From assembly GCA_963753345.1 (NCBI GenBank), contig CAVWBU010000034.1, forward strand, positions 1 through 64,000: a DNA stretch of 64,000 nucleotides, in the 5' to 3' direction. The position numbers and the translations under genes are program-made. Of this stretch, positions 31,423 through 48,739 are shown in pieces (the stretch's first letter is position 1; the number at the start of each line of letters is the position of its first letter). The DNA comes from an uncultured Fibrobacterota bacterium (GTDB lineage Bacteria; Fibrobacterota; Chitinivibrionia; Chitinivibrionales; FEN-1185). Below the pieces are notes generated by a model that saw nothing but the letters and a program-made list of their open reading frames with translations, did no database searches and had not been told where the DNA came from.

Positions 31423-31494
31423 TTCTAGCATTAGTATCGCGTCTAGGCAGGGCGAAATCGATTTCGTTGACATTGGAACCGGCAATAGGTAGAA

Positions 31495-31588: not shown

Positions 31589-31599
31589 AGGTGATACCA

Positions 31600-32580
31600 A
31601 TGAAACGATATAACATCTGCTTTCATTTGTTAAGTGTTGTTGTCTTGCTCAACACTGCTCTAGCATTTTGCGAAAATTGGAAAGATACCGTTGAACCAAA
31701 CTACCAGCAGGCAGTAATCGATTATATCGAAAACAAAATGCCTTACAGGAATGAAGGAAAAACATTTGCCTATTGTGACTTTTTCGGCGAGACACCTTAC
31801 AATAACGGATTGACAATCTGCGCAGAGTGTTCTTATCTTACCTACCTGTTGAAATATGGTCAGATTATTTCAACCGGCGGCGGCAGTTTTGACGGGCTTT
31901 TTCATGTCAAGACCGTGGACAACAATCCATCCGTAGACTCAATGAAATGGAACTTGATAGCAAAATATTCCAGCGGCTTTTTCCCCAACCGGTACTATGA
32001 TCGTTATCTATCGCATGTAAAAAATCCCACTCCAGATTTTGTCTCCAAAAGAAAAGAAAACAGAGAAAGGATCATCTCCTATTTCACACCGCTCATGTTG
32101 AAAACCCGTTTGGTTAAAGTCAAGCCTCCGGATAACCGTCATGACCCGCACAATCACCCGGTGGATATTTACAGCTTTATGAATCTCCGGGATTCGTACA
32201 AATATCTCTCTTTTGTTCTTTTGTCCGACAGCGCAAGGCAGCACATGAAACCCGGCTTCGGGAACATCAGTTCATTCAAGTTCGATGTCTGGGAGACAGC
32301 AGACCCGAACGGACGTCTTTACTTCCGAGATAGAACGCGAAATGACAAGGTGTATGAAATTGTCGATCAGGTCAACTGGAGGCTCAGCGACATAAAGTGG
32401 AAGGACAATAGCACACTGGTTTTTGACCAGGACAACGGGACCAACCCGTTTGATGAAAAGGCCGTTTCGCCTGACGTTTACGGGGTTCATTTTGAAGTGG
32501 ACCTGGAAAAAAGGAAAGTCGTTTGGGCTGCGCCGTTTGGATTGCTCGGTTTTCCGGAAAGGATTCCAGCGGATCGATAA
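31600..32580 (+). CDS. Hypothetical exported protein
   Basis: Long AT-richer ORF with a signal-peptide-like N-terminus; no family recognised. Confidence 0.65.
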   Translation: MKRYNICFHLLSVVVLLNTALAFCENWKDTVEPNYQQAVIDYIENKMPYRNEGKTFAYCDFFGETPYNNGLTICAECSYLTYLLKYGQIISTGGGSFDGLFHVKTVDNNPSVDSMKWNLIAKYSSGFFPNRYYDRYLSHVKNPTPDFVSKRKENRERIISYFTPLMLKTRLVKVKPPDNRHDPHNHPVDIYSFMNLRDSYKYLSFVLLSDSARQHMKPGFGNISSFKFDVWETADPNGRLYFRDRTRNDKVYEIVDQVNWRLSDIKWKDNSTLVFDQDNGTNPFDEKAVSPDVYGVHFEVDLEKRKVVWAAPFGLLGFPERIPADR

Positions 32581-32818
32581 AAAGGACGGCGGCACGCGGA
32601 AAAGGCAGGAATGAAGAAATCGTCATTGGTCATTGGGAATGGGGGGAAGAAGGTGAGGTGTTTGGTGAATGGGAGAAAAGTGGGAGATGGGGATATTAAT
32701 CGGGGAAAATTGCAAGAGTTAAGATGATTGAAAACAGATGAATGGATGTCCTATGGCTCAGCAGGTTTGTATAAAACTGCGACTTGTTAATACCGTTTTT
32801 ATTTACCGGAGCTTATAA

Positions 32819-34174
32819 GTGGAAAAGTTTTTTGATTTCTTCATTAGCAAGCTTGAAAGCATATGGCACAATTTCTACTCATCCATTTTGCTTTCCGCGG
32901 TCGTTATTTTGAGTATAATTGCTTTTTTTAATAGCTCTCCTCATTGGTGTTTAATTTCATTGTGCCTAGGTGCTGCTGTAATTGTCATTTTCCTGTGGTT
33001 TGCTACGCATCATTTGCCAAAAGTACCTAAAGGTAAAATCGGAATTGCTATTTCCTTAATTTATGACCGGGAGTCTGAAGCCAAACAGGTCGAATTGGAT
33101 TTCATTACTGCTTTACGCAATTTACTTCAAAGAGATCCTGATTGTGCAAATATCGGAATGGTTGTCTTGCCAGAATATGTGTCGCTGAAACTGCAAGATA
33201 CTGCCAAATTTGAAAAGATTCTCAGAAAATGCAGAGCGCATATGCTTCTATATGGATCTGTTAAGCGGCGCAACATACAAGGGAAGGAAATGCATTTATT
33301 GAATGTTGAAGGTTTTATAAGACATGCTCCAATTCCGGTCGAGATAAGCAAGAGATTTGCCGAGGATTTTGCATGCTCAATACCGCGAAAGTTAATGCTC
33401 CCGACCGAAAATGATGCTCTCATCTTTGAAAGCGCATCTACTTGGTTTGATTTGAGTGCACGTTATGTAATTGGTGTTGCTGCATATCTTTCGGGATCGG
33501 TGGCGTATGCTGAGAAAATGTTTCTTCAAGTTGAAGACTCACTAAGGAAGTTAAAGTCGGCCCCTCCTTTCCTTCAAACGATTGCTAAGAAACTGCCATT
33601 CCGCTTTATCGAATTATATCAAATTTGGCAAAGTGCAGTTCATAGTGCTTACATCGCATCAGAGGATATTAATCTTCTTACATTCGAGGATACTCTGAAC
33701 GACAAACTCTTAGCAAGAGACCCAAAACACTATAGCGCTTGCCTTGCGAAATCGATTTCTGAATTTGTCTTACGCAGAAACATCAAAAAGGCAAAAGAAT
33801 ATTTACTCAATGTAGGTAGCAATAAAGATGCGACATGGCTTTATAACCTTGCTTTTTTATTCTGTTATGAAGGTGATTTGCCCAATGCACATGAGCATTA
33901 CCGAAAAGCATTTAGAATTGCAGTTGGAAATGTAACTGTCCCTCTTCAGTGCGAGGAATTTATTCAAAAAATATTGATAAAAGAGCCTGGAAAAGACCAA
34001 TTGTATTTCTCCTTAGGTCTTATAAACTACAATGCAAAAAAAGACTACTATGCCGCAAAAGATGATTTTACACAATTCATTGGAACAAAATGGGCAAATA
34101 ATTTTCCGAATGAAAAGACTTTGTCTGAGAAACTGATAAAGCGGTGCAACGAAAGAATAGAGAAAATGACTTAG
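32819..34174 (+). CDS. Hypothetical protein with two N-terminal TM helices and C-terminal TPR-like repeats
   Basis: 451 aa AT-rich ORF; YNLAFLFCYEGDLPNAHEHYRKA and YFSLGLINY...AKDDF are TPR-like. Confidence 0.7.
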   Translation: MEKFFDFFISKLESIWHNFYSSILLSAVVILSIIAFFNSSPHWCLISLCLGAAVIVIFLWFATHHLPKVPKGKIGIAISLIYDRESEAKQVELDFITALRNLLQRDPDCANIGMVVLPEYVSLKLQDTAKFEKILRKCRAHMLLYGSVKRRNIQGKEMHLLNVEGFIRHAPIPVEISKRFAEDFACSIPRKLMLPTENDALIFESASTWFDLSARYVIGVAAYLSGSVAYAEKMFLQVEDSLRKLKSAPPFLQTIAKKLPFRFIELYQIWQSAVHSAYIASEDINLLTFEDTLNDKLLARDPKHYSACLAKSISEFVLRRNIKKAKEYLLNVGSNKDATWLYNLAFLFCYEGDLPNAHEHYRKAFRIAVGNVTVPLQCEEFIQKILIKEPGKDQLYFSLGLINYNAKKDYYAAKDDFTQFIGTKWANNFPNEKTLSEKLIKRCNERIEKMT

Positions 34175-34294
34175 AAGGCCACCGCGATAGCAAATAGAGG
34201 AATCACAGCCAACAACACGCAATGGAATACCATTTCCGCTGTCGCCTTGTCGCATTGCTGATGGTGTCATGTCAGGCAATAGAAAGTCAAATTT

Positions 34295-35389
34295 ATGAAA
34301 AGTCACATTACAGTTGGAACCAATCAAGATGACCAATATCTAGTTGACCATTTTTTAACAGGCGATCAAATACGCTGGCCTGTTCCAAAAGATGCAGAAA
34401 TTGGTGATACTGTGTATTTACTTATTCCCTCATTATCCGGTTCTATTATTGCCAAAGGAATTGTTGCGACAACTCCTATCAAAAGCAATACTTGGCAATC
34501 AAAATATGAGTGCGCCTTGGAAAAGATTCGGTTCTCAGTCAACCAGCCGTATATTGAGGAAATTGCGGAAAGTATTCCAGAATGGGAGTATCCTAAATAC
34601 GCTCGTTCCTACACAACAATACCCGATGCACATGTAAATAACTTTGTTTCAATAGTTGGGGATTTTGATGATAGACCGCGTCTTTTTAGAGAAGTGAAAG
34701 AAGAAGAAATCATGAATGCTCTGGAAAATAATCTTTTCAGCAAAGTTGAAATAAAACTTCTTGGCTATTTTCTTGCAGCGCCAAACAACACATTAAACGC
34801 GATGCAAATGGCATCACTCATGGGGTATCCCAAATTTAATTCCGTCAATCCAATTATTGGATCGATTGGAAAGAAAATCAGCGAAAAGTATATGATTCAT
34901 CCAAGTTGGTGGTCTCAAGAGGACCCCAATTGGTGGTCAGTAATTGCTGACGGAGAAGAAGATGAATACTTTTTTTGGACACTAAAGCCGCAAATCGTGA
35001 AGGCTTTGAAGAATGCAAATTTCCCCATCAAAGACGGATTAGAGTATGAGCCTGATGAAATCGCAACCATTGAAGATGGTAATGAAGAAGGTAGAAGAAT
35101 AAACGTCTTTGTGAGCATTTATGAACGCGATGCAGCCAATCGCAAGGCATGCATAGCGTTCCATGGGTACAAGTGCTCGATTTGTAACTTTGATTTTGAA
35201 AAGGCCTACGGAAAGATTGGGAAAGGTTACATTCAAGTTCATCATATCATTCCCCTAAATGAAACAAAAACCATTGTAAAGGTGAATCCCAAGACCGATT
35301 TGGTTCCAGTATGCGCAAATTGTCATGCGATGATACATAGAAAAAAACCTGCATATTCCCTATTGGAAATGAAGTCCGAGTTGACTTAG
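34295..35389 (+). CDS. HNH endonuclease, McrA-like, with a possible EVE/PUA-like N-terminal domain
   Basis: YERD..NRKACI..HGYKCSICNFDF..YG.IGKGYIQVHH..PL...DLVPVCANCHAMIH. Confidence 0.85.
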   Translation: MKSHITVGTNQDDQYLVDHFLTGDQIRWPVPKDAEIGDTVYLLIPSLSGSIIAKGIVATTPIKSNTWQSKYECALEKIRFSVNQPYIEEIAESIPEWEYPKYARSYTTIPDAHVNNFVSIVGDFDDRPRLFREVKEEEIMNALENNLFSKVEIKLLGYFLAAPNNTLNAMQMASLMGYPKFNSVNPIIGSIGKKISEKYMIHPSWWSQEDPNWWSVIADGEEDEYFFWTLKPQIVKALKNANFPIKDGLEYEPDEIATIEDGNEEGRRINVFVSIYERDAANRKACIAFHGYKCSICNFDFEKAYGKIGKGYIQVHHIIPLNETKTIVKVNPKTDLVPVCANCHAMIHRKKPAYSLLEMKSELT

Positions 35390-35409
35390 TCATAACTCCT
35401 ACATTCCCC

Positions 35410-35583
35410 CGCCGGGTGCCCTGCCCCTCTTACCAAACTCCAACATGACCCGTGTGCCACAATTATCCCTGCTCATGCATCATCAATCCCGCACACTCTT
35501 TTCATTCCCCCGCCGTCAACCCCCCTCCTAAAACCCACAATTCCCCCGGTCTTCATTTATTGTAACGAAAGACAAAGGAGCAC
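35410..35583 (+). repeat. Direct repeat R1 (cassette-delimiting family)
   Basis: CGGGTGCC...CGTGTGCCAC...CATTCCCCCGCCGTCAACCCC...CCGGTCTTCATTTATTGTAAC...GGAGCAC. Confidence 0.85.
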
Positions 35584-36025
35584 ATCGCCGTCGCTCATTC
35601 TCTGCTCCTCGCTCCCCGCATCCCTCGCCTATTTCTGTTTCTCCGTCCTCACATAGATCCCATTCGCACTGCGCCCCGACACCTTTCCCGCTTGTGTTGC
35701 GTCCCGACGGGTGGCCGGATCTTCTCTCTAATTTTGAGACAGGCTGCACATCCCCCGTCAGGATATTTCTTTTGTTAGTATTTTGTTCTTGGCCTATTTT
35801 GCTTTGTGAAGCGAGATGGAATTACTATATTATCCAATGCACCCGCAAAAGGCAATACAGCGGATGTGTCCAGCCTACGCAAGAAATCATTCGCACGCCG
35901 CCCGGCAGAGTGCCGTTTGTTCGTCTTGACCGATTTCATTTGAAGACGGGCAGGAGCCCGCCTGGTCCCGAACGGCCGGACCCATTCGGGAAAACGAACG
36001 TCACCGGAGAGGAGTTGAGTATTCC

Positions 36026-36490
36026 ATGGAACCCCAAAAAACAACCTTGTTGAGACAGGCTGTTGCAGCCGGAACGATCGTCGTTGCCGTTGCCCTGTGC
36101 GGCGCGAATTCGCTGGCCGCGACGCCGGCTTCGATGGCTGTTTACAAGAAAGGGTCTGCCCCGCTGGTTTTCAATCTATCTTCCGTAAAGAATGTGACCT
36201 TCGGCCCGACGGCTGCCGGAAAGCTGAGACCTGTTGCCAGGGTCGTGCATTCGATCAGGTTGCTTTCATCCGCTGCCGGCTGCAAGTTCAGCCTTACGGG
36301 CGAACCAGGGACCACGGCCCTGTTCAAGCTCTTCGATCTCAAAGGGCGCGAAATACTCTCCAAAGATCTGCTGTTGGGCAATGAAGGCGTCGGAAGAATG
36401 ACGGTCCCTCCCATTGCCACCGGCCTGTACCTGGCCCAGCTCAAGAACGGCGCATCGTCAATCATGCAGCGCATCACTCTCGGTGAATAA
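36026..36490 (+). CDS. Small secreted protein consisting mostly of a T9SS-type C-terminal domain
   Basis: Signal peptide, short FNLSSVKNVTF module, CTD motifs LFDLKGR and ATGLYLAQL...QRI. Confidence 0.7.
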   Translation: MEPQKTTLLRQAVAAGTIVVAVALCGANSLAATPASMAVYKKGSAPLVFNLSSVKNVTFGPTAAGKLRPVARVVHSIRLLSSAAGCKFSLTGEPGTTALFKLFDLKGREILSKDLLLGNEGVGRMTVPPIATGLYLAQLKNGASSIMQRITLGE

Positions 36491-36501
36491 GGAAAACCCT
36501 T

Positions 36502-39500
36502 ATGAAAAAAATCAACTTCGCGGCCCTTCTCGTTTTCGTTGCCGCGTGCTCCGTCCTGGCGGCCAGAATGACCATCACCAGCTACGGCGTGCCGCACCGC
36601 TATCCCATCGGGCCTTTTGACCAGATCACGTTCGACGCAACCGGCCTGGTTGCCACCATCACCAGCCCGGGTTCACCGCAGCCCGTCGTTACGAAATATT
36701 ACCTTGGCTATTCGAATTCCGTCGTCCTGGACACGGTTGGCGGGCCGATTACTTCGCTCAATGTCAACGCTACGGATAACACCACCATTGCAATAGATTT
36801 CAACAGCATCGACAGCATCGTGTTCAGGCCGTCCGTTGATTCCACGGGCGACGACGACGCGGACGGGCTCAGCAACTATCTCGAACTCATGCTCTATCAT
36901 ACCGACCCGGAAAAGAGTTCCACCTCGGGCGACGGCATAGTGGACAAATGGAAAGTGTCGCATCAAAGCAACGGCATGCTCGTTGCGGACCTTCCGGAGC
37001 TTTCGGTCGCCATGGCAAAATTCCCGCAGGTATGGCTGGTGACCTCGTTGGATTCCACGGCGTCGGTTGAAAACACCGTTTCAAATACGTCCGGTTGGGG
37101 AAATCAGGAGCAATCCACCACGTCCACGACGGGCTCGCAGACCGCCAGCAACGAATTCGGCGTCAGTTTTGCCGAAGAGATGGGGTATTCATGGCAGTTT
37201 GGGTCGGTGGGGGCGCACGTTACTTTCACCATGGGCCAGCAATACAGTCATACCTGGCAGCAGGAAGTTTCCCAGGAAGTCGCGTCCTCCCGGCAGAGTT
37301 CGTACAACCAGACGCTCGGCCAGACCCAAACCGCAATAAGGCAGGCAGGCAAGACGATAAGCGGCGGTAAAATCACCGCGATGCTCAATCTCAAGAACAC
37401 CGGCGCCGTCGGTTTTACCATGACGGACCCGCAATTCACGCTCTATGGAATCACGTTTGTCAACGGCGTTGTGGCGGAAACCCCCATTTGCAATCTGGCG
37501 ACCGCCCCGGAGCTCAACGGCAGCAGCAGTGTGTTCAGCATCAATCCGGGCGCGACGGCCGTGGCCGGCGTGCAAGGCAGTCTGACGCTTGCGGAAGTGG
37601 CATATATCGGCACCTTCCCCATTCTCAAGGTCTCGTGCACGAGCGAGAACATATCCTACAACCCCACGCTTTCCGCAACGCCCATGAATCTGTCCGACGT
37701 GATGACCAATGTCAGGTCGGCGACCGCGCAGGTGATCGTTGATTTCGACAACGAATTGGCCGGCCAGCAGTCTCCCCTGTCGCGGTACGTGGCCACGCTT
37801 AACAAATACAACCCCGCAAACCCGACGGTAGCCGGGTACGGCCCGGTCTACCTCGGTGAAATGCTGACGGAAATGGGGCTCACCTATCATTTCGACTCTC
37901 TCGGATTCGTCGATGTAAACGGGCTCAAGCGCGGCGCGGCAAACGATTTCTTCAGCCGCCGATGGATTACAATGATCATCCACGCAGCGGGCGGCGCACA
38001 ACCGGGCGATACCGGTGTGGTGAACGTAGGGGCAAACGGCGGCCCGGACAGCGTCGTGGTAAAAACGGGCGACATAGTTTACGTATGCTATTCGGGCGAC
38101 GACGACCGGGATTCGGTCCCGAACTGCGTGGCGAAACTCTATGGGATTTCGGACACGACAAAGTCCAAGAAATGGCATGATTTTGACGGCGACGGCGTTT
38201 CGAACTTCCAAGAGATTTACGGTTGGGTGCCGATAGGAGGCACAGACACGGTCCACACCGACCCGGCAAACCCGGACTGCGACGGGGACGGTATCCTGGA
38301 CGGCGCGGATCCCTATCCGCTCATTCCACACTTGACAAACGCGTCGAATCTGCTGTCCTTCTCCACGCTCGACAACACCGTGCTCATCGAAACGATCCAA
38401 ATTTCCCCGCAATCCTCATTCGGCGCCCTTACCCGACCCCTCCCGGCGTTCCCGCGATATTATGCGGACCTCGATTCAATGCCTCTGCACTGCGTTGTAG
38501 TGCAGAACAGTATCGATTCCATCCCCATGGTGTACGATACCACGTTCAAAGACACGGTATCGACCTCGCCGCTCACCACCCGGTCGCGCTACAGGTTGAT
38601 GTCCACATCTCTCGCTCAGCATGTCTTGGCGCTCGGGCCGGATACGCTTACCGTGGTGACGCAACCGATGACCGGCGGCTCTCCGAAAACATGGAAGATA
38701 TCCGGTATTTCAACGCTTGAGAATGTGATGGGCGCTCCGCAGGCTTCCAACCTGCTTCCCGCAAACGTCTCCTCTACGGGGAGCCGATGGGCACGGATCG
38801 ATATTTCCGTTCAAATGGTTTCCGAGCAAATCGCGGCCGATCCAAGGACAAGCGGCATCATCGTATTCCGATCGAGCGGTCCGAACTCCGACACGTTCGA
38901 TCTCACCTCTCGAAACAGTCCCCTTGGCGCCGGAGAAAAGATAGGCACTCAGTCAAGCTGGGAAGTAGACACGGTTCTGTCCGCCCTAACGGCAAATGTC
39001 TCGTACACGTCGACGAACTTGAATTCCGGCACCGTGTGGAACTACCGCTCGGTACCGTACAATGTCGCAAATGGGAATATCTATTACTACGGAGCCAGTG
39101 CGGGTTTCACGTCCGCAAAGACATGGGAAATCTGGGTGTCCACAACTTGGGACTCCTTTACGTGCGCTCTCAGCAATTTCGGCTCGGCAACCGTGCTTGC
39201 GATGAACATGCGTTACCGGAATGTCAACGGAGACACCGGCGCACTTTCCACGGCGTGGGTGAGCGGGCCGTATTCCTATATTTGCGCCAACGGGACCAAG
39301 TATCCGGTGAAGTGGGTCGATTCGGCGCAAGTGCATGTGCATGACAGCGTCTGGACCAATATCAGCATGCTCAATTTTACCCAAAACGTGCAGCTTCTGA
39401 CAATCAATGTCGACAATCTTGCCGCGGGAGGTTTTACCGATCCGCTCAAGGTATTCAGCGGCGGCGTCGTGGCGGGGCAAGGCGCGTTCTGGGAACCCGG

Positions 39501-39678
39501 TCGAGACGGAAGCGCAACGTGCACCAATGTGCAGTTTACAAACAATATCGCCGTGCCCACGGCATCCAGCCCCAACGCGGTTACATTCCAGTCCACTACC
39601 CATACGGAAACAAACTGGGGGGCCGGAACCTGGGCGGCCAATATCGGTCCGATGAAATTCAGGTGGTGGTTCAAGTAA
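36502..39678 (+). CDS. Large secreted protein with binary toxin B/anthrax protective antigen-like Ca-binding and pore-forming region
   Basis: Signal peptide; DDDADGLSNYLE..YHTDPEKSSTSGDG..D.WKV; LVADLPELSVAM; Ser/Thr-rich hairpin; LNLKNTGAV; second Ca-binding cluster DFDGDG..N.QE..TDP.NPDCDGDG. Confidence 0.7.
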   Translation: MKKINFAALLVFVAACSVLAARMTITSYGVPHRYPIGPFDQITFDATGLVATITSPGSPQPVVTKYYLGYSNSVVLDTVGGPITSLNVNATDNTTIAIDFNSIDSIVFRPSVDSTGDDDADGLSNYLELMLYHTDPEKSSTSGDGIVDKWKVSHQSNGMLVADLPELSVAMAKFPQVWLVTSLDSTASVENTVSNTSGWGNQEQSTTSTTGSQTASNEFGVSFAEEMGYSWQFGSVGAHVTFTMGQQYSHTWQQEVSQEVASSRQSSYNQTLGQTQTAIRQAGKTISGGKITAMLNLKNTGAVGFTMTDPQFTLYGITFVNGVVAETPICNLATAPELNGSSSVFSINPGATAVAGVQGSLTLAEVAYIGTFPILKVSCTSENISYNPTLSATPMNLSDVMTNVRSATAQVIVDFDNELAGQQSPLSRYVATLNKYNPANPTVAGYGPVYLGEMLTEMGLTYHFDSLGFVDVNGLKRGAANDFFSRRWITMIIHAAGGAQPGDTGVVNVGANGGPDSVVVKTGDIVYVCYSGDDDRDSVPNCVAKLYGISDTTKSKKWHDFDGDGVSNFQEIYGWVPIGGTDTVHTDPANPDCDGDGILDGADPYPLIPHLTNASNLLSFSTLDNTVLIETIQISPQSSFGALTRPLPAFPRYYADLDSMPLHCVVVQNSIDSIPMVYDTTFKDTVSTSPLTTRSRYRLMSTSLAQHVLALGPDTLTVVTQPMTGGSPKTWKISGISTLENVMGAPQASNLLPANVSSTGSRWARIDISVQMVSEQIAADPRTSGIIVFRSSGPNSDTFDLTSRNSPLGAGEKIGTQSSWEVDTVLSALTANVSYTSTNLNSGTVWNYRSVPYNVANGNIYYYGASAGFTSAKTWEIWVSTTWDSFTCALSNFGSATVLAMNMRYRNVNGDTGALSTAWVSGPYSYICANGTKYPVKWVDSAQVHVHDSVWTNISMLNFTQNVQLLTINVDNLAAGGFTDPLKVFSGGVVAGQGAFWEPGRDGSATCTNVQFTNNIAVPTASSPNAVTFQSTTHTETNWGAGTWAANIGPMKFRWWFK

Positions 39679-39718
39679 CGAGGGCGCCCTGGTGCTCCCA
39701 AAGAGATATTTTGGCGGA

Positions 39719-39882
39719 CGGGTGCCTGCCCCATTCCTCCGTGTGCCACTATCATCCCTGATCGTGCATCATCAACCCTGCACCCTCTTTTCATTCCCCC
39801 GCCGTCAACCCCTCTCCTAAAATCCACAATTTCCCCTTAATTTTCCCGGTCTTCATTTATTTTAACAAAAGACAAAGGAACA
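39719..39882 (+). repeat. Direct repeat R2
   Basis: Same blocks as R1; supplies the AAGGA RBS for the ATG at 39889. Confidence 0.85.
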
Positions 39883-39888
39883 TCCTGC

Positions 39889-40722
39889 ATGCTTGTCGAA
39901 AACGACGGTCTTGTCATTCCGGAAGTCGGCGCCTGGGCAAAAGAGAAGTACGGCCTGGTCCAAACCTATTGCAGCATGTTTACTGGAGCGATGAAACCTC
40001 CCAAATGGCAGGCGCTTGTCTATATTGATTTGTTTGCGGGCGCTGGTTTTGGAAGGATAAAGAACACTTCGGAAATCGTCCCCACTTCGGCGCTGCTTGC
40101 CATTGACATCCCTGTGCGTTTTACGCGATACATTTCTTGTGACATAAACGCCGACAACATCGCGGCACTTCGGAACAGGGTTTCGCGTCTCTTTCCCGGT
40201 GTTGATTCCCGCTTTCTCTGCTGCGAAGTAAATACGGCTGTTGACCAGATCATCGCGGAAATGCCCGCGGCGGGCAAGGACCATAAGGTACTCGCTTTCT
40301 GCTTCGTCGATCCATTCAAGCTCGACGACCTTGCATTCTCAACCATTGAGAGAATGTCCAAGCGGTTCATGGATTTCCTTGTTCTTGTAGCTACCGACAT
40401 GGATGCCAACAGGAATGTCGCGCCATACATGGCCCCGGAAAATACGACCGTTGCCCGTTTCACCGGAAAAAAGGATTGGCGAACAAGGTGGGACCCGCTA
40501 TCAAATAAATCGTTCGGCCTATTTGTTCTTCACGAATTCTCCGCCCACATGCAGGACTTAAATTATAAACCGCAGCCAGTCGAGGAATCGGTCCTTGTAC
40601 GGAATTTTCAAAAGAACGCGCCATTGTACCGGCTGGCATACTTTAGTCGGCACGATCTCGGCAAGAAATTCTGGAGAGAAACGAAGAAGTCTGCCGACCC
40701 TCAGCTGAACTTATTTGAATAA
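39889..40722 (+). CDS. Three-Cys-motif partner protein (TcmP family, methyltransferase-like)
   Basis: VGAWAKEK, YIDLFAGAG, FVDPF, N.KNAPLYRLAYFSRH.LG.KFW; adjacent to a DUF5131 gene. Confidence 0.85.
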   Translation: MLVENDGLVIPEVGAWAKEKYGLVQTYCSMFTGAMKPPKWQALVYIDLFAGAGFGRIKNTSEIVPTSALLAIDIPVRFTRYISCDINADNIAALRNRVSRLFPGVDSRFLCCEVNTAVDQIIAEMPAAGKDHKVLAFCFVDPFKLDDLAFSTIERMSKRFMDFLVLVATDMDANRNVAPYMAPENTTVARFTGKKDWRTRWDPLSNKSFGLFVLHEFSAHMQDLNYKPQPVEESVLVRNFQKNAPLYRLAYFSRHDLGKKFWRETKKSADPQLNLFE

Positions 40723-40731
40723 GGACGACGC

Positions 40732-41454
40732 ATGTCTTCCAACTCCCGCATCGAATGGACCGAAAGCACCTGGAACCCCATAACCGGATGCACCAAAATC
40801 AGTCCGGGGTGCAAGAACTGCTATGCCGAACGCATGGCGAGACGCCTGCGGGCCATGCGGCAGCCCAACTATCGAAACGGGTTCAAGGTCACCATTCACC
40901 CGCACGCACTGGGACTCCCGCTCGCATGGAAGAAGCCCCAGATGGTTTTTGTAAATTCAATGAGCGACCTGTTTCATGCCCAGGCGCCGAGGGAATTCAT
41001 TCTCGAAGTCTTTGGCATCATGAACAGGGCGTGTTGGCACGTGTACCAGATCCTCACCAAACGAGCGGATCGGCTTTCAACTATGGATTCTTCTTTGCCG
41101 TGGTCGGAGAACATCTGGGCAGGCGTGACGGTCGAAAACCGGGAGTATTTGCAACGGGTCGAAAACCTTCGTAGGTGTCAGGCAAAGAACAAATTCATTT
41201 CCTTTGAACCCCTGCTGGGCAGCGTTGGACCTGTCAACCTTGACGGAATCAACTGGGTGATCGCAGGCGGCGAATCCGGCCCCCATGCGCGTCCCGTCCA
41301 AAAGGAATGGATCACCGAAATCCGCGACCAATGTATTGCCCAGGACAAGCCCTTTTTCTTCAAACAATGGGGCGGAGTTCGAAAAAAGAAGAACGGCCGA
41401 GAACTTGACGGCCGCGTCTGGAGCGAGTTTCCGGCGCGCTTGACAGTCGCGTAG
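40732..41454 (+). CDS. Phage Gp37/Gp68 family protein (DUF5131, three-Cys radical-SAM-like)
   Basis: IEWT..TWNPITGCTKISPGCKNCYA, FVNSMSDLFH, LTKR, SFEPLL, WVIAGGESG, FFFKQWGG. Confidence 0.92.
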   Translation: MSSNSRIEWTESTWNPITGCTKISPGCKNCYAERMARRLRAMRQPNYRNGFKVTIHPHALGLPLAWKKPQMVFVNSMSDLFHAQAPREFILEVFGIMNRACWHVYQILTKRADRLSTMDSSLPWSENIWAGVTVENREYLQRVENLRRCQAKNKFISFEPLLGSVGPVNLDGINWVIAGGESGPHARPVQKEWITEIRDQCIAQDKPFFFKQWGGVRKKKNGRELDGRVWSEFPARLTVA

Positions 41455-41539
41455 GTAGACAGCCTTCACCTTGTACCCTGACCGCAACCTCGGTTTACTT
41501 TAGGCAAGACATGTCATCGTCGAGAATTCACTCCCATGC

Positions 41540-41624
41540 TCCCCCGCCGTCACCCCCTCTCCTCCCGCCCGCAATTTCCCCTCAATTTTCCCGGTCTTCA
41601 TTTATTTTAACGCCGGAGGAGCAC
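41540..41624 (+). repeat. Direct repeat R3 (5'-truncated)
   Basis: TCCCCCGCCGTCACCCCC...CAATTTCCCCTCAATTTTCCCGGTCTTCATTTATTTTAACGCCGGAGGAGCAC. Confidence 0.85.
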
Positions 41625-41681
41625 TGGAAATTCGATCAAGCGGTGCATGAACTTTACATTTAACGTCATATGAGGATGTCT

Positions 41682-42239
41682 ATGAGAAAGGTTGTTTTTG
41701 CGATCAATATTACCACCGACGGGTACTGCAACCACACGGACATGATTGCCGACGATGAGTTGCTCAACTTCTATGCCGGGCTGCTGGGCAATGCAGGCAT
41801 CATCCTCTTCGGCCGGATCACCTATCAACTCATGGTTCCCTATTGGCCCGACGTCGCCAGGAACCAATCCGGGGCAGGGCCAACCAAGGAGTTCGCTCGC
41901 GTGTTCGACTCGCTCGACAAGGTCGTATTCTCCACCACGTTGAAACATGTTGAGGGAAACAACACGAGAATCGTGCGCGCAAACCTTGCGGAAGAGGTGC
42001 TCACGCTCAAGCAGCAGCCTGGAAAAGACATTTTCATAGATAGTTTGAGCATTGCGTCCCAGCTTTCGGACCGCGGTTTGATTGACGAGTATCATTTCGT
42101 GGTTCACCCGGTTGTTGCCGGTAAAGGACCGCGGTTATTCGACACCGTAACGCTGCAGGAGAGGCTTCTGCTAGACTTTATCGGTTTGAAAACCTTTCAA
42201 TCCGGCGTCGTTGCCCTTCACTACAGAAAGCATACGTGA
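41682..42239 (+). CDS. Dihydrofolate reductase family (RibD C-terminal-like) protein
   Basis: [36 protein letters not shown]...PVVAGKG.RLF, SGVV.LHY. Confidence 0.88.
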
Positions 42240-42301
42240 GGAGAAACGCCGTACGAAACCTGGCGTATTCGAAAATTGAGAGCAAAAAGATGAAAGGAAC
42301 G

Positions 42302-42482
42302 CGCCGGGTGCCCTCTCCCTCATCTCGGTCTCAACCATAACTCGTGTGCCACTATCATCCTCAATCGTGCATCGTCCCGCCTAAACACTCTCCGCATTCC
42401 CCCGCCGTCAACCCCTCGCCCTTGTCCCACAATTTCCCCTCAATTTTCCCGGTCTTCATTTATTTTAACGCCGTAGGAGCAC
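42302..42482 (+). repeat. Direct repeat R4
   Basis: CGCCGGGTGCCC...CGTGTGCCACTATCATCC...CATTCCCCCGCCGTCAACCCC...CCCGGTCTTCATTTATTTTAACGCCGTAGGAGCAC. Confidence 0.85.
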
Positions 42483-42546
42483 AGTGCCGATGATTACCAA
42501 AACACCAACCATCAGCAACGTTACCTTCGCGCGAAAGGGGGCTTGC

Positions 42547-44649
42547 ATGAAAAAATCTCCGGTGCAGCTTATTCTTGGTATCGGGTTGCTGATTTTATTT
42601 ACGAGCGCGGGGCATGCCCAATGGGTGCAGACAAACGGGCCGTATGGCGGGGACATCAACGCCCTCGCATTCAACGGCGCCACTATTCTTGCCGGCACTG
42701 AAGGAAGCGGCGTTTTTCTCTCCACCAACAATGGAGCAAGCTGGTCTCCGGCCAATAACGGGCTCTTGGTCGGCTATATCTCTTGTCTTATGGTGAGCGG
42801 AGATACCATTTACGCCGGAACCAACGGCGGGGTCTTTTTCTCCACCGATAACGGAACAAGCTGGGCCGCGAGCACCAGCGGTCTCACACGTCTCAGCGTC
42901 ACGGCCCTTGCGAAGAGTGGCGGCACTATCTTTGCCGGAACCGGCGGCGGGGTCTTTCTATCCACCAATAACGGAACAAGCTGGACTGCGGCCGATAGCG
43001 GGCTTTCGAGCGCCAATATCTACGCTCTTGCAGTAAGCGGGAGTGCCATCTTCGCCGGAACCTGGGGCGGCGGCGTTTTTCTATCCGCCAATAATGGAAC
43101 GAGCTGGACCGCGGTGAATAGTGGGCTCACGAGCCTTAATGTTATGGCTCTTGCGGTGAACGGGAGCGCCATCTTTGCCGGGACCAGTGGCGGCGGCGTC
43201 TTCCGTTCAACAAATAACGGAACAAGCTGGACTGCGGTTGATTCTGGACTTACGTCGACAAGTGTCCGATGTTTTGCGGTAAACGGCAGCGACATCTTTG
43301 CCGGGACAAATGGCAACGACCCTGTTTTTCTCTCCACCAACAACGGATCAAGCTGGACCGCGGTCGACAGCGGCATTACCATTGCCAATGTCTTGTCCCT
43401 CGCAGTAAAAGGCAGCGACATTTTTGCCGGAACTTTTTACGGCGGCGGCGTCTTCCATTCAGCCAATAATGGAACAAGCTGGACCACTGTCAACAATGGT
43501 ATTACGAATAGCCGCATACTTTCCATCGCGACAGGTGACAGCGGCGTCTATGCAGGTACGTGGGGCGGCGGAATTCTGTTTTCCGCGGACAAAGGAACAA
43601 ACTGGGCCGCGGTCAATGCCGGCAATCCGGCTTACAAAAATGGTTTATACGCCCAAGTGCTTTCTCTTATCGCAAGCGGCGGAAAAGTGTTCGCTGGCAT
43701 TGAAGCATGGGGCGTTTTCCTTTCTACGGATAAGGGGTTGAGCTGGACTTCGGAAAGTATTTCGAGTGCAAGCGTCGAGTGTTTTGCCGCCAAAAGCGAC
43801 ACCCTCTTTGCCGGGGCTTACCAGGGCGGCGTTTTTCTTTCCACCAACAGCGGTACAAGCTGGACCGCGGACAATAACGGACTAACGGACTCTGATGTCG
43901 TGTCTCTTACAGTGAGCGGCGGCAATATTTTTGCCGGGACCTCCGGCGGCGGCATCTTTCGTTCAGTCAATAACGGATCAAGCTGGACCGCGGTTGATTC
44001 CGGACTTACGAGCCTGACTATCAACGCTCTTGCGGCAGTCAGCGGCATTGTCTTTGCAGGGACGACTAGCGGGGTTTTTATATCCGCCGATAACGGCGGC
44101 CATTGGACCGCAAGCGATTCCGGCCTTACCCGTCTTTACGTCACATCTTTTGCCGTGATCGGCAGCAACATTTTTGCGGGGACTGATGGCGGCCGTGTTT
44201 TTCTCTCCGCCAATAACGGCGTAAGTTGGATTGCGGAGGACAGCGGGCTTCCGAATGCCTCCGAAACATATCTTGCCGTAGGCGACAGCACGCTCTATGC
44301 CGGAATTTACGGCAGCTGCGTGTGGCGGCGACCGCTCCCTGAAATGACGACGGCAATCGATAAAAGCACCAAGCGAGCGGCTTCACAGCAATTACTTATC
44401 AAGATACGCTCGCTTGGCCATGGGAGCACGGCCGCTAGGATTGATTTTTCACTGCCACATTCCGAGCGGGTCACGATGAGCATTTACAACCTTGCCGGCC
44501 GTGAAATAGCATCTCTTGTCAATGACTTTCTTGGATCGGGCCCGCATAGCATACTTTGGAATACCCAGAACATTGCCGCAGGTTGTTATACAGTAAGAAT
44601 GAAAGCGGGATCGGATACATTCATAAGAAGTATTCCGATTTTACGTTAG
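42547..44649 (+). CDS. BNR/Asp-box repeat beta-propeller protein with T9SS-type CTD
   Basis: About 14 repeats of IFAGT.GGGVFLSTNNGTSWTAVDSGL; CTD IYNLAGREI...AGCYTVRM. Confidence 0.85.
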   Translation: MKKSPVQLILGIGLLILFTSAGHAQWVQTNGPYGGDINALAFNGATILAGTEGSGVFLSTNNGASWSPANNGLLVGYISCLMVSGDTIYAGTNGGVFFSTDNGTSWAASTSGLTRLSVTALAKSGGTIFAGTGGGVFLSTNNGTSWTAADSGLSSANIYALAVSGSAIFAGTWGGGVFLSANNGTSWTAVNSGLTSLNVMALAVNGSAIFAGTSGGGVFRSTNNGTSWTAVDSGLTSTSVRCFAVNGSDIFAGTNGNDPVFLSTNNGSSWTAVDSGITIANVLSLAVKGSDIFAGTFYGGGVFHSANNGTSWTTVNNGITNSRILSIATGDSGVYAGTWGGGILFSADKGTNWAAVNAGNPAYKNGLYAQVLSLIASGGKVFAGIEAWGVFLSTDKGLSWTSESISSASVECFAAKSDTLFAGAYQGGVFLSTNSGTSWTADNNGLTDSDVVSLTVSGGNIFAGTSGGGIFRSVNNGSSWTAVDSGLTSLTINALAAVSGIVFAGTTSGVFISADNGGHWTASDSGLTRLYVTSFAVIGSNIFAGTDGGRVFLSANNGVSWIAEDSGLPNASETYLAVGDSTLYAGIYGSCVWRRPLPEMTTAIDKSTKRAASQQLLIKIRSLGHGSTAARIDFSLPHSERVTMSIYNLAGREIASLVNDFLGSGPHSILWNTQNIAAGCYTVRMKAGSDTFIRSIPILR

Positions 44650-44782
44650 CTTTCTTTTTTCGCAAGAGCCCCTGCGAAGAGAGGAGATCGTTGCAGGTTA
44701 AGAACTTCGGCCAACAAATAAAGGAACGCCATTTTTGCTGGACACTCAATTTGTAAATTAATGTAGATAAGGGCGCGGTATA

Positions 44783-45727
44783 ATGGAGTTCATTGCTTTA
44801 TTGGTTTTCATCATCACCCAGATTGTAATTATTCCCTTGGTGATTATCGGCGCAATCATCGCTACATATAAACAGGTCTTTGTCAGCAAGAAGTTGGGTG
44901 TCTCTAGCACGGCCATTTCCGTTATCAGCGCCAGGTGGTTAATGGATGTTTTTGGCCTTAGAAAGGACACGGCTTCGGTTAGGTTATACCGCGTTCTTCC
45001 CAATGCTTACGTATTTGGCATGTGGCTCCTTTTTTTCCCCGCCTACCTGCGGTACAAAATCAGCGGAAAACATAGAGGCTTTGCATCAATTAAAGAAGAG
45101 GGCAAGGAGGGCATGGCAAACGTAGCCATTACCAGAACAGTTCATTTTGATAGCCTGGTCAATAACTCAATAAATCAAGTAAGGCAATTTGTCGTTATGG
45201 GAGCCGGATACGACACAAGGTGTTATGGACATCTTAAGCAAAACAACGTAACGTTTTTCGAGCTTGACCAGCCGGCGACACAAAGACTAAAAGTAAAATG
45301 CCTGAAACAAGCCGGCATTGACGTATCTCATGTTACGTTTCTTGAAGTGGATTTTTCCAAGGATAACTGGCTTGAAAAGCTAAAGGATGCCGGTTTTAGT
45401 CCGGACAAAAAAACCATCTTTTTATGGGAAGGCGTAACACTTTACATCTCTGAAAATGATGTCCGAAAAACAATACACGCGGTCAAGGAGCATTCTTCTC
45501 GTGGCAGCATACTGATCACAGATTTGTATTCTAAAAGATTAATCGCTCTCAGAGGTGTGAAAGCGACAAATGAGCAGTTTAATTTTGCACTGGACTTCTC
45601 ATCTGACAGAGAAAATGTTCTAAAAACATTCCTGGAAAGTGAAAATGTAAAAGCAGGCAACTTTTATTTTATGGGGCACAAAACCAAGAAAGGTGCGTTT
45701 GGGGTAGTCGTTGAAATTATTCTGTAG
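44783..45727 (+). CDS. SAM-dependent methyltransferase (leucine carboxyl methyltransferase/TIGR00027-like) with a membrane N-terminus
   Basis: RTVHFD, VVMGAGYDTR, FELDQP, VDF, LWEGVTLY. Confidence 0.85.
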   Translation: MEFIALLVFIITQIVIIPLVIIGAIIATYKQVFVSKKLGVSSTAISVISARWLMDVFGLRKDTASVRLYRVLPNAYVFGMWLLFFPAYLRYKISGKHRGFASIKEEGKEGMANVAITRTVHFDSLVNNSINQVRQFVVMGAGYDTRCYGHLKQNNVTFFELDQPATQRLKVKCLKQAGIDVSHVTFLEVDFSKDNWLEKLKDAGFSPDKKTIFLWEGVTLYISENDVRKTIHAVKEHSSRGSILITDLYSKRLIALRGVKATNEQFNFALDFSSDRENVLKTFLESENVKAGNFYFMGHKTKKGAFGVVVEIIL

Positions 45728-45866
45728 GGTTTTATTCTTAATTGATTTTCTCGAAATAAAAGTGTGCGCCTCCTCTCTCTCCTCTGCATTTTCTTTTTCT
45801 TTCTCATAACCCCGCCCTCCCTGTTGCGGATTGTGGATTTCGGATTGCTTCATAAAAAGATATCAC

Positions 45867-46006
45867 GGTGGGGGATGTCTCCCCCTGGCCCCCGGCTTCC
45901 GGCACTGCGCGCCGGTGATCCGGGGGCACACCCCCTCGTGGGTAGCCCCCAAGCAAGTTTGGTTACAAGATAGACACATCGGCTGCGGGGGCACCGAGAA
46001 AGAGAG
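45867..46006 (-). repeat. Family B repeat (composite with 46110-46295)
   Basis: GGTGGGGGATGTCTCCCCC...CCCCCTCGTGGGTAGCCCCC...GGGGGCACCGAGAAAGAG. Confidence 0.85.
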
Positions 46007-46109
46007 TTGAATAGTTGAAGAGTTTCAAATTCAAAGAGGAATCCCCGCCTGATTCATTGCGGATACCGATTTGCGCGAGAAAAAGTAATTGACTGAATAG
46101 AATTCCGTT

Positions 46110-46295
46110 GCCGCGCGTTAGGGGCGACTGGAGGGCGTGCTGGAGCACGATGCCGCCCGGACCCGCCGCGCAAGCGGTATTGGGGGCCGTGGCGGCCCGG
46201 GGCCGAAGGCCGACGACCCTTGGAAGTACCCGACGGGGTAAACCTCCTCCGCTTTGAAATCTTTGATATCTCTAACGCAGCAGCAGGGTGCCCAA
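46110..46295 (-). repeat. Family A repeat, divergent copy
   Basis: GCCGCGCGTTAGGGGCGACTGGAGG...GGCCGAAGGCCGACGACCCTTGGAAG...GGGTGCCCAA; middle matches 13790-13820. Confidence 0.75.
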
Positions 46296-46322
46296 ATCTT
46301 GATACCACAGCCTTGTTAGGCA

Positions 46323-47009
46323 TTATCTAATTAAATTCACTTGTTTTGCAAAGGTGTGATTCCCAATCGTAAGCTGGAAAAAATATGCGCCATTTCTAAA
46401 GCCCCTTGCATCAAATAACAAATTATATGATCCTGCATCACAAATACTGCTGATTAATGTCTCTAGTTTTCTACCCTTGGAATCAAATACATTGAGCTTA
46501 ATAAAAGCTCTTTCAGGAATTGACAACCTAAAAGTCATGGTTCGCTCAATTTGATTGGGATAGCATTGGAATTGTATAGACGTTTGTGAGATTTCAGTTC
46601 TATTTCTTTCTATCCCGGATGTTACTCTATCATAAGTTGTGGGTGTATTGAATGAAGTTGGTGTTGCAACTTGCGGTAGGCCGGTATGCCAATAACCTTC
46701 TATCTGCAGACCTGAGGAATCTGATGAAATTTGATATATTCCTTTCCACCCTACTATACCGCTTTGTCCTAAGTCGATTTCTCTTAGGCCGGAAGAAGGA
46801 ATCGATAAAGTTGCATAGTTGGCCGTCTCCGGCGGTGTTGTTTGAAATTGAATGATTACCGTTGAATCATTCAAAAAGATATATCTGATCGGGTCGCCGG
46901 GACCGGAGACGTTGTCCCAGGTTCCTGTCAAAGATTGGGAGGAAGCGTAATTGGTGATTCCTAAGACTAGGAGTAACAACAAGTAGATTGAAGATAATGA
47001 TTTTTTCAT
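46323..47009 (-). CDS. Secreted protein with T9SS-type CTD
   Basis: Signal peptide; CYPN...VFDSKGRKL...NGAYFFQL...KQV; AT-rich; AAGGAG RBS. Confidence 0.8.
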   Translation of the reverse strand: MKKSLSSIYLLLLLVLGITNYASSQSLTGTWDNVSGPGDPIRYIFLNDSTVIIQFQTTPPETANYATLSIPSSGLREIDLGQSGIVGWKGIYQISSDSSGLQIEGYWHTGLPQVATPTSFNTPTTYDRVTSGIERNRTEISQTSIQFQCYPNQIERTMTFRLSIPERAFIKLNVFDSKGRKLETLISSICDAGSYNLLFDARGFRNGAYFFQLTIGNHTFAKQVNLIR

Positions 47010-47329
47010 ACAACGAGTCTCCTTGAGGTTGATGATGAGTGTATAATGTCAGGCGAGCCTGTAGAAATCCCCACTTTTGACTAGGGTTAGATGCGGTGTA
47101 ATTGTATCATGATCCAAGTGGACATACCAGACGTAATGAATCTATCGTGCTTTGGGCACAATCAACAGTAGGTTCGCTTCGCGGCTACAACTGTAGGATT
47201 ACGTTTTCTCTCTTCAATCCGCATTCCGCAATCATCAATCAAAATGCTCCATTCTTTCTTGAACCTTGTCCTCGGTTTCATCGACTATTATTTATATTAA
47301 ACCTCAAAGGGCGGACTGCGGGGGCACGT

Positions 47330-48688: not shown

Positions 48689-48739
48689 TGGATTGGCAAG
48701 ACCTCAGCTCCCGTCATGTGTATGCAGTCAAAGTCGCGG

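Follow-up and report, generated by a model that had tools for sequence, protein, structure and literature searches.

The 64,000-nt stretch of DNA analyzed here (the window; contig CAVWBU010000034.1, positions 1 to 64,000 of the forward strand, assembly GCA_963753345.1) comes from an uncultured bacterium of the Chitinivibrionales and carries an island of accessory genes. Within this island, a non-coding module of about 175 nt, named R, occurs as four direct copies (R1 to R4) between unrelated genes. The assembly, called G000, comprises 4.5 Mb in 55 contigs, and the window lies on a contig of 95 kb. The comparisons involve a sister species of the same genus (G001), further genomes of that genus (G002, G003, G004, and G005), and two wider sets of related genomes, 61 for BLAST searches with R2 and 41 for a sequence-only covariance model built on seven copies of R. 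Coordinates given without a contig refer to the window. A preliminary description of this DNA had proposed an integron-analogous array of captured genes, in which the repeat would serve as a recombination site and/or as a portable promoter with its ribosome-binding site.

The Island Between acs and surA

The variable island spans about 18 kb (30971..48980). It is bordered on the left by acs, encoding acetyl-CoA synthetase (28885-30960, minus strand), and on the right by the SurA-like gene surA (49070-50893, minus strand). In G002, G004, and G005, a few hundred nt separate the orthologues of acs and surA, as against 18 kb in G000. This near-adjacency in three genomes of the same genus identifies the stretch as an island located at a hotspot. 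The GC content varies from 41 to 57% across the units of the island, vs. about 60% in the flanks.

Copies of R and gene units alternate on the plus strand. R1 (35408..35592) comes directly after an HNH endonuclease gene (34295..35389). The unit that follows R1 (36026..39678) encodes a 154-amino acid (aa) protein with a type IX secretion system (T9SS) sorting tail and then a 1058-aa secreted or lipoprotein. R2 (39714..39888) precedes a unit (39889..41454) composed of TcmP (TIGR04474) and DUF5131, which match the A and B components of PADLOC PDC-M41, a candidate defence pair. R3 (41540..41626) is followed by the RibD_C unit (41629..42272), which has sharp borders, its own leader and Shine-Dalgarno (SD) sequence, an ATG at 41682, a stop codon at 42239, and a 3′ hairpin; comparison with three orthologues establishes 41682 as the true ATG. 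Finally, R4 (42300..42489) leads into a unit (42484..45727) encoding a BNR/sortilin propeller with a T9SS tail and then an LCM-type S-adenosylmethionine (SAM) methyltransferase (44783-45727). The real start of the BNR gene may be an ATG near 42553, before the signal-peptide-like sequence MKKSPVQLILG. Domain searches bear out the earlier statement that the units between the repeats are functionally unrelated. The label of “PA-like toxin” given to the 1058-aa protein found no support at the sequence level: the protein has TSP3-like Asp-rich repeats, and sequence searches of Pfam (even at an E value of 5), NCBIfam, PADLOC, PDB, and Atlas returned no family match and no support for a toxin.

No recombinase or transposase was detected among the 43 open reading frames (ORFs) scanned in the window (14 + 29), in agreement with the earlier remark that no integrase is in view. 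A genome-wide scan for tyrosine recombinases (PF00589) gave eight matches in G000, all of them on other contigs and none on the 95-kb contig. High-copy structured repeats unrelated to R are found in the window at 30971-31427, 45867-46252, and 48805-48980. The high-copy intergenic repeat families of G000 have 70-240 copies each, and none occurs within 31.5-45.8 kb.

The HNH endonuclease gene is the last gene of a low-GC block (41-43%; 31585-35389). This block also encodes a 331-aa protein and a 451-aa protein that matches TPR weakly; the HNH endonuclease itself resembles type IV restriction enzymes. The block had no DNA match in the five other genomes of the genus that were searched.

Copies and Distribution of the Repeat

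A repeat search of the window located the direct-repeat family at 35451-35577, 39740-39866, 41485-41611, and 42343-42469. An nhmmer profile made from the four copies and run against the whole assembly recovered the same places, at 35411-35598 (E 7e-41), 39716-39894 (E 2e-48), 41487-41639 (E 2e-36), and 42303-42494 (E 6e-47). Neither nhmmer nor BLAST found any other full R in G000, the remainder being weak partial matches to model positions 16-67. With the alignment of the copies, these searches substantiate the four direct repeats of the preliminary description, and the four-way alignment also recovers the shared sequence blocks that it had listed. As had been described, all copies are on one strand (plus) and each begins shortly past the preceding stop codon, 21, 41, 86, and 63 nt after it for R1 to R4, respectively. 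The copies are mutually 75-85% identical, with for example 83% identity over 127 nt between R2 and R4 and 83% over 144 nt between R1 and R2.

Each copy has its own features. R1 is full-length and decayed: it carries a deletion of 11 nt, reads TATTGT for TATTTT, and has GTCG for GATG, whereby the start codon is lost; no gene is found downstream for about 440 nt. R2 abuts the ATG of TcmP (39889) and has AAGGA 9 nt upstream of that ATG. R4 is a full copy upstream of the BNR gene and is a hybrid. R3 had been reported as truncated. This is correct in that only 41540-41626, the right-hand part running from block B (defined below) to GGAGCAC, belongs to R. However, the 85 nt on its left (41455-41539) are the native 3′ flank of DUF5131, orthologous in G001, to which this part of R is fused. 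The similarity between copies had also been said to end abruptly after GGARCA, whereas in R2, R4, and the G001 copies it continues, as A-N-TGCC, up to the first in-frame GTG/ATG.

With the covariance model, full R was found four times in G000, three times in G001, and in none of the other 39 of the 41 genomes. Likewise, long BLAST matches to R2 were obtained in G000 and G001 only, with none in 59 of the 61 related genomes. The G001 contigs with R carry the same island genes, and one of them extends to surA. Plasmid and phage collections contained no R. Exact scans with an invariant 22-mer of R retrieved G001 as the single genome record and one metagenome contig, of the G001 type; viral contigs gave no match. 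When genome contigs were scanned with the 19-mer of block B, 41 loci were retrieved, among which only two G001 contigs belong to the Chitinivibrionales. The others were taken as chance occurrences; they are single matches in other, unrelated lineages, many of them typically GC-rich. Thus, the BLAST, covariance-model, and k-mer scans show R to be restricted to one lineage and one island. Rfam gave no match in the window at gathering scores. The possibility of a conserved peptide encoded on the minus strand of R was rejected, since the 11-nt deletion of R1 shifts the frame and the stops differ among copies.

Ten public DNA runs containing this DNA were found, and the contigs of four of them, which are short and of low depth, were examined. 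Among these short, low-depth contigs, none bridged an alternative R-R junction; several start or stop inside or beside R. The region 32.8-35.2 kb has zero cover in all four runs, and 35.2-35.8 kb shows a trace in one run alone. Apparent joints of 31160/31163 to 46056/46057, as expected of an island-less form, were rejected because their sides, 22-25 nt in length, fall inside high-copy repeats.

Composition and Conserved Blocks

R is rich in C (37-41%) and poor in G (13-16%). Its folding was evaluated by z-scores of the minimum free energy against dinucleotide shuffles, for the four copies, on the two strands, and with DNA and RNA parameters. Secondary structure is not above that of the shuffles (z -1.1 to +2.2), and the alifold consensus reaches -7.9 kcal/mol with 1 compensated pair. 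The composition and the z-scores uphold the earlier observation of C-rich repeats devoid of attC-like dyad symmetry. Hence, having no fold and no dyad symmetry and being C-rich and G-poor, R is not attC-like.

Conservation within R is clustered. Of the 192 columns, 102 are the same in each of the five full copies; the runs that they form are 21 (block B, ATTCCCCCGCCGTCAACCCC), 15 (block C, CGGTCTTCATTTATT), 10 (GTGTGCCAC...), and 8 columns (CACAATT) long. A run of 21 invariant columns was reached in none of 20,000 column shuffles. Block B (TTCCCCCGCCGTCAACCCC; 39794..39812 in R2, plus strand) does not vary among the five full copies; it also occurs at 35505, 41539 (2 mismatches), and 42397. 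With up to two mismatches, it has four matches in G000, all in R, and the four sites found with three mismatches are isolated and devoid of R context. Block C (CCGGTCTTCATTTATTTTAAC; 39846..39866 in R2, plus strand), which contains a -10-like TATTTT, is also found at 35546 (1 mismatch), 41591, and 42449; its near-matches in G000 (at most 1 mismatch) are in R only. Finally, in GTCAAC-N16-ACAATT, the spacing is fixed in six copies and the sequence of the 16-nt spacer varies.

Expression Signals

The promoter words of G000 were derived from 813 long ORFs whose start is anchored by an SD motif. Upstream of these starts, TATTTT is the most enriched hexamer (6.9-fold), with TATATT (5.2-fold) and TTGACA (4.0-fold) also enriched, and the TTGAC-17-TAnnnT spacing forms a peak of 29 cases vs. 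about four at other spacings. The enriched hexamers and the preference for a 17-nt spacing indicate that the organism uses sigma-70-like promoters. These words appear to follow the scheme TTGAC(A)-17-TAT(A/T)TT, with TATTTT peaking 40-70 nt before the ATG. In R, the TATTTT of block C is 23-29 nt before the first in-frame GTG/ATG.

R ends with GGAG(C/A)AC and reaches the start codon in R2 (TcmP), in R4, and in both gene-linked G001 copies. A GGAG/AGGA sequence is found 8-9 nt before the ATG of TcmP and before that of LCM in G001, and is the sole ribosome-binding site of both genes. R1, the one G000 copy without a gene behind it, has lost TATTTT, the spacing, and the ATG. In G001, the copy named R3′, which is trailed only by high-copy repeats, is the most diverged of all, with 43-57% identity. 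That the decayed copies are exactly the two gene-less ones, R1 and R3′, fits a function tied to the downstream gene.

Other signals were considered. Sigma-54-type and extracytoplasmic function (ECF)-type promoters, as well as a minus-strand promoter via the TTGACG of block B, were discarded after inspection by eye, no consistent -10/-12 partner being present. R has a Rho-type composition (C-rich, G-poor, and unfolded), and rho is encoded in G000. Genome-wide, C-rich tracts (613 regions, 0.23% of the windows scanned) show no 3′-side bias at co-directional genes (78 vs. 100). Because of this lack of orientation bias, a role of R as a Rho-loading site is given little weight.

A Left Arm Shared With a Palindromic Motif

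The left 50-90 nt of R are part of a separate, conserved, low-copy motif that bears a palindrome and is present elsewhere too. The layout of the motif is CGCAC-GGGTGCC ... GTGTGAA ... A-rich ... CGTGTGCCAC-GATCATCCYTGATC-GTG, within an element of about 90-200 nt. The palindromic motif has the consensus GTGCCACGATCATCCTTGATCG. Its copy in R2 is at 39743..39764 (plus strand); others are at 42346 in R4 and, in degenerate form, near 35455 in R1. The palindrome itself is of the 8-4-8 type, CACGATCA-TCCY-TGATCGTG, with a 4-nt spacer. G000 contains six copies of the motif at up to two mismatches (five outside R) and nine copies of its core at up to four mismatches (seven outside R). At up to two mismatches, the motif is present in five of the 61 related genomes, vs. 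none for a control with the reversed pattern. With 1-6 copies per genome, it occurs in four of the six genomes of the genus, and one genome from another family has it as well.

The seven copies outside R in G000 are at C23:63303, C52:24664, C40:91830, C48:29552 (minus strand), C49:95923, C22:5889 (minus strand), and C47:78379. About five of them are located some 60-340 nt downstream of a gene on the same strand, mostly between convergent genes, one is upstream of a gene, and one has no clear gene context. In some copies, an inverted partner hairpin, AGAGCACTGTCG-WGGA-CGACAGTGGCACACG, follows at a distance of 40-110 nt; its loop is complementary. The motif and its partner fold only modestly better than shuffles (z -0.65 to -2.65), and the stem variants of the palindrome show no compensatory changes. 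The right end of R, GGAGCACAGTGCC, resembles the start of the inverted partner. In both full-length G001 copies of R, the LCM-linked and the BNR-linked one, the palindrome loop contains a 47-nt insertion.

Searches of Rfam with 13 motif-bearing loci at E ≤ 1 gave nothing relevant. A match to Acido-Lenti-1 at one motif locus was dismissed, as it scores 34.4 bits, under the gathering score, and is 86 nt off the motif; two other matches were at chance level. A shared upstream gene was also sought, and the 14 neighboring ORFs proved unrelated, three 331-aa ORFs being merely 25-26% alike.

Gene Content and Breakpoints in Relatives

The genes adjoining R are 88-91% identical between G000 and G001. 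In G001, contig C124 carries, in this order, high-copy repeats, R, LCM, repeats, a second BNR gene, and surA. Contig C256, to which a metagenome contig is nearly identical, carries a foreign AT-rich gene, a 5′-truncated TcmP, DUF5131, R3′, high-copy repeats, R, BNR, an XhoI-type enzyme, and a DNA methylase. The latter two (positions 3784-5572 of locus L019, on C256) are an XhoI-type restriction endonuclease and an N6/N4 DNA methylase, placed directly after BNR where G000 has LCM.

Comparison of the two species shows that the RibD_C unit between R3 and R4 is missing at that place in G001. The unit with the 1058-aa gene and R2 are missing as well, the breakpoint being 57 nt inside TcmP, the G001 copy of which has a stop codon. 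BNR and LCM are parted in G001 by the restriction-modification pair and a copy of R, as against a 96-nt spacer in G000. Altogether, three of the four mapped G000/G001 breakpoints are at or beside R. The preliminary description had reasoned that an invariant gene order between the repeats in relatives, or a repeat scattered singly over the genome, would tell against an array. Cassette content and order differ in G001, the one relative having R, and BLASTN of the repeat against the genome and its relatives shows that R is not scattered genome-wide, so that neither situation was encountered.

The 96-nt spacer between BNR and LCM in G000 (44687-44782) holds a relic of a BNR repeat at 44720-44742 (AAAGGAACGCCATTTTTGCTGGA), which suggests the deletion of a gene formerly present there. 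Upstream of the LCM gene, G000, G001, and G002 have three unrelated sequences, and homology begins at the ATG of the gene; R precedes it in G001 and is absent there in G000 and G002. In G002, the LCM gene (C27:1-7000; pieces at 360-558, 1854-2053, 3697-3847, and 5045-5472) is broken by three different insertion sequences, which have their own inverted ends and target duplications TTA, ATGAA, and GACGT. One of these, which is 1643-1644 nt long and has a 523-aa ORF outside any Pfam family, is matched with 100% identity by G000 C18:14260-15903; G000 and G002 are only about 85-92% identical in shared genes. A relation of these insertions to R was rejected, as they are ordinary insertion sequences with ends unrelated to R.

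The RibD_C segment (41629-42272) is 92% identical to segments of G002 and G004 and 85% identical to one of G003, which have other neighbors and no R. The three closer copies share their end, ...GGCGTATTCGA, located just past a hairpin, and the 5′ borders differ in G002 and G004. RibD_C is thus seen in four chromosomal contexts in four species (G002:C33, G004:C9, and G003:C6 for the relatives), with ATTCGA at both ends of the segment, and in G002 it is again directly upstream of a BNR/T9SS gene. Another variable spot is found in G000 at C31:8141-8566, where a 202-aa tyrosine-recombinase fragment is upstream of a BNR/T9SS gene; the G002 orthologue has RibD_C there instead. Gene-sized mosaicism is common in the genus, and only some of the junctions carry R.

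Hybrid Repeats

Hybrid structure was assessed at the informative sites of the R alignment by a maximum-chi-square test with 5000 permutations. Up to column 145, R3 matches the orthologous flank of G001 at 20 of 22 sites, and from column 152 it matches R at 39 of 41 sites (0/5000 permutations). R4 resembles the LCM-linked copy of G001 up to column 166 (18 of 22 sites) and, from column 175, the BNR-linked copy (eight of nine sites; 13/5000). Its left two thirds are thus of the LCM-linked type and its right third of the BNR-linked type. The native half is the left one in R3 and the right one in R4, so that the non-native halves face the RibD_C unit, which is absent there in G001. Read from the alignment, this pattern looks like the footprint of a double crossover, in which an incoming R-RibD_C-R segment would have replaced the DNA between two resident copies of R, and supports homologous recombination. 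Weaker mosaic signals were obtained for R1 (54/5000) and for the BNR-linked copy of G001 (107/5000), with changes near columns 42, 169-175, and 227-232. The existence of several switch positions among the copies fits homologous recombination or gene conversion and speaks against a site-specific system.

Self-comparison of G000 revealed 85 pairs of other local low-copy direct repeats in intergenic DNA. On one contig, three copies of a 150-220-nt module (C28:419-564, 4105-4326, and 10024-10231) precede unrelated genes encoding a DUF6057 protein, a protein of unknown type, and a trypsin-like protein. A second local set of modules is found on C18:21577-28476, and the copies within these families are 83-98% identical. 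These two families indicate that the local spread of intergenic modules is not peculiar to the island.

Possible Function and Origin of the Repeat

The sequence comparisons establish the repeats and their confinement to the island, the clustering of conserved columns, the absence of a fold, the differences in content with three of four breakpoints at or beside R, and the hybrids around the RibD_C unit. What we infer is promoter activity, a role of each of blocks B and C, and a mechanism of homologous recombination. We give about an even chance to the proposal that R is a propagated and reused intergenic expression module that also provides portable homology for a RecA-type exchange of cassettes. 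The left arm of R would have been borrowed from the conserved low-copy palindromic element, which elsewhere is mostly found just downstream of genes. It would be continued by the unstructured C-rich, G-poor tract carrying the invariant 19-21 nt of block B, then by the invariant AT box of block C with its TATTTT, and then by the GGAG reaching the start codon. In this arrangement, R would combine a promoter or activator site, a short leader, and a ribosome-binding site, and its copies would form a local family of “putative mobile promoters” (PMP). R may then drive or re-initiate the expression of whatever gene follows, in an island of unrelated, separately acquired genes. Owing to their 75-85% identity and direct orientation, the copies may serve as portable homology too. 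Through RecA-type recombination or gene conversion from one copy of R to another, within the genome or with an incoming related array, genes would be inserted, deleted, or replaced. The outcome would be a cassette-like array without a dedicated recombinase. From the two-sided interpretation given before, the promoter and ribosome-binding site half is the one that fits, in view of the clustered conservation, the TATTTT, and the GGAG serving as an SD sequence in two units; the analogy with a site-specific integron is not supported.

A number of observations weigh against this expression module proposal. On the promoter side, no TTGAC is present 16-18 nt upstream of the TATTTT of R, and a scan with the sigma-70 consensus gave no plus-strand promoter in any copy. 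With no -35 element and no sigma-70 match, promoter activity is unproven and would require an activator or another sigma factor. No RNA run was among the public runs found to contain this DNA. The terminal GGAG is unused in R3, being 58 nt from the ATG of RibD_C, which has its own SD sequence, and in R1, which has no gene behind it, and the real BNR start is possibly 70 nt downstream. The invariant blocks could come from recent gene conversion instead of selection, and the mosaic signals of R1 and of the BNR-linked copy of G001 could reflect uneven divergence. On the recombination side, one breakpoint is inside TcmP and not at R. The two best-mapped switches (columns 145-152 and 166-175) are beside block B, no more than 30 nt apart, with one informative site between them. 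If this site is discounted, the switch intervals of R3 and R4 overlap, so that a fixed crossover near block B may apply. In addition, the right end of R is joined to unrelated genes. As homologous recombination cannot make such fusions, an extra illegitimate or site-specific step is called for. None of the readings discussed here explains how the right end of R was first joined to unrelated genes.

On another view, R would be an integron-analogous site, likeliest in the block B region, of a recombinase encoded elsewhere, with circles made up of a gene and R being excised and captured at another R. The direct, one-strand array of unrelated units with a content that differs between G000 and G001, the invariant blocks found nowhere else in the genome, the closeness of both best-mapped switch points to block B, and the eight tyrosine recombinases encoded elsewhere in it would agree with this view. 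So would the arrangement of G001, where restriction-modification genes and R are found between BNR and LCM and G000 has no R, since homologous recombination between copies of R alone is insufficient there. However, not only do the 43 ORFs of the window lack a recombinase or transposase, but no tyrosine recombinase is found on the 95-kb contig or on the two G001 contigs. Moreover, without dyad or fold on either strand, R is unlike attC, dif/pdif, lox/FRT-type, and att core sites, further switch points exist near columns 42 and 227-232, the RibD_C unit is found without R and with differing 5′ borders in G002 and G004, and one G000/G001 breakpoint is inside a coding region. We therefore regard a dedicated site of this kind as distinctly unlikely. 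Its most specific form, which we find more doubtful still, would make R an asymmetric, unstructured C-rich site with a crossover beside block TTCCCCCGCCGTCAACCCC and a recombinase acting in trans. This would be an “expression-ready integron” in Fibrobacterota, without attC-like folding, in which each unit brings its promoter and ribosome-binding site.

The left arm common to the low-copy element, and a right end resembling the start of the inverted partner, raise the question of whether R is a non-autonomous element of the miniature inverted-repeat transposable element (MITE) type, or one half of the palindromic element, inserted in intergenic DNA and carrying an outward promoter by chance, in the manner of Correia elements or ERICs. 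The genome is rich in other interspersed repeats, and R is before LCM in G001 and not in G000 or G002. Yet, no target-site duplication or usable terminal inverted repeat exists at any of the seven copies, all copies are in one island and one orientation with none dispersed, and no clean pair of filled and empty sites was seen, the neighboring genes differing wherever the presence of R differs. Random insertion would also not end at start codons, and this origin appears quite improbable. The copies might instead be passive leftovers, that is, old segmental duplications or conversion tracts in a hotspot, with no function of their own and with blocks produced by recent conversion. In this respect, the hotspot is full of rearrangements and relics, such as the BNR-like fragment at 44720-44742, the decayed R1, and the diverged R3′ of G001; the mosaicism shows that conversion happens, and other local intergenic repeat families exist. 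Against this, two species that are only 88-91% identical in adjacent genes have the same conserved blocks in each of the five full copies, a constant distance across a spacer of variable sequence is typical of sites bound by proteins, and the decayed copies are the two without a downstream gene, which leads us to consider that explanation unlikely.

If the expression module proposal is right, a reused 175-nt module together with ordinary homologous recombination is enough for a bacterium to build and reshuffle an integron-like array of unrelated defence pairs, secreted proteins, and small enzymes. The hybrids flanking RibD_C would be a concrete footprint of such an insertion. R would then be a tandem, lineage-restricted example of mobile promoters, the mode of spread of which is still unknown. 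It would also be one more sign that intergenic repeats are unusually abundant in Chitinivibrionales genomes. A limited search of the literature on the Chitinivibrionales and on promoter propagation, covering titles and the starts of abstracts, found no such arrays in the group.

Relationships With Known Systems

The pdif modules of Acinetobacter plasmids consist of 28-bp dyads, a XerC arm, a 6-bp spacer, and a XerD arm, placed as inverted pairs around each module. R shares with them the bounding of gene modules by a recurring site without a dedicated adjacent recombinase. It differs by its length of about 175 nt, its direct orientation, and the absence of a dyad. The spacer of its internal palindrome is 4 nt long. 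The preliminary description had noted a loose resemblance to a XerD arm; judged from the sequence, the direct orientation and the lack of dyad symmetry argue against such a relationship.

Correia elements, ERIC, and REPIN/BIME are named as promoter-bearing interspersed repeats (PMC3575422). Like these, R is a short intergenic repeat that may be able to place promoters or terminators, and its left arm comes from a palindromic element. In contrast, R is unstructured, has no inverted ends or target duplication, and occurs in low copy number at one locus. Neither the terminal inverted repeats, target-site duplication, and dispersal of MITEs nor the high-copy palindromic hairpins of REP/BIME/REPIN, families linked to a RAYT transposase, are found in R, which is unstructured and has four copies; the palindrome of its left arm has nine copies in the genome.

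Promoter propagation, or promoter reuse, in prokaryotes is the concept behind PMP and was reportedly put forward by Matus-Garcia, Nijveen and van Passel in 2012. PMP are defined by an identity of 80% or more, along 50 nt or more, between the upstream regions of genes of one genome that are not paralogues; more than 4000 families are reported and their mode of spread is given as unknown (PMC3575422). By this sequence definition, R belongs here, with R2 and R4 being 83% identical over 127 nt and the downstream TcmP, RibD_C, and BNR genes being unrelated. R further resembles PMP in being neither a catalogued RNA (no Rfam match) nor a known insertion sequence, and in its mechanism of spread being unknown. 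It differs from them in that most PMP families are scattered pairs, whereas R has four copies (and three more in G001) in tandem order, in one island, at the borders of units. Moreover, R reaches the start codon, and two of its copies are recombinant hybrids around an inserted gene.

In integrons, attC sites are imperfect inverted repeats folding into a single-strand hairpin and share structure and not sequence, and cassettes are mostly promoterless; a cluster of two or more attC sites without an integrase is called a CALIN. The island resembles these systems by its one-directional array of unrelated units, its recurring non-coding site, its variable content, and the absence of an integrase nearby, as in CALINs. 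Here, the array is varied and of one orientation, as in an integron, but no IntI-type recombinase is found beside it and no attC-type fold is formed. R also lacks the R″-L″/L′-R′ dyad, the units hold up to two genes, and the switches are not at one position. In addition, the copies of R are 75-85% identical in sequence and seem to supply expression signals. For genome annotation, the comparison calls for caution, as cassette-like arrays without an integrase need not be kin to integrons.

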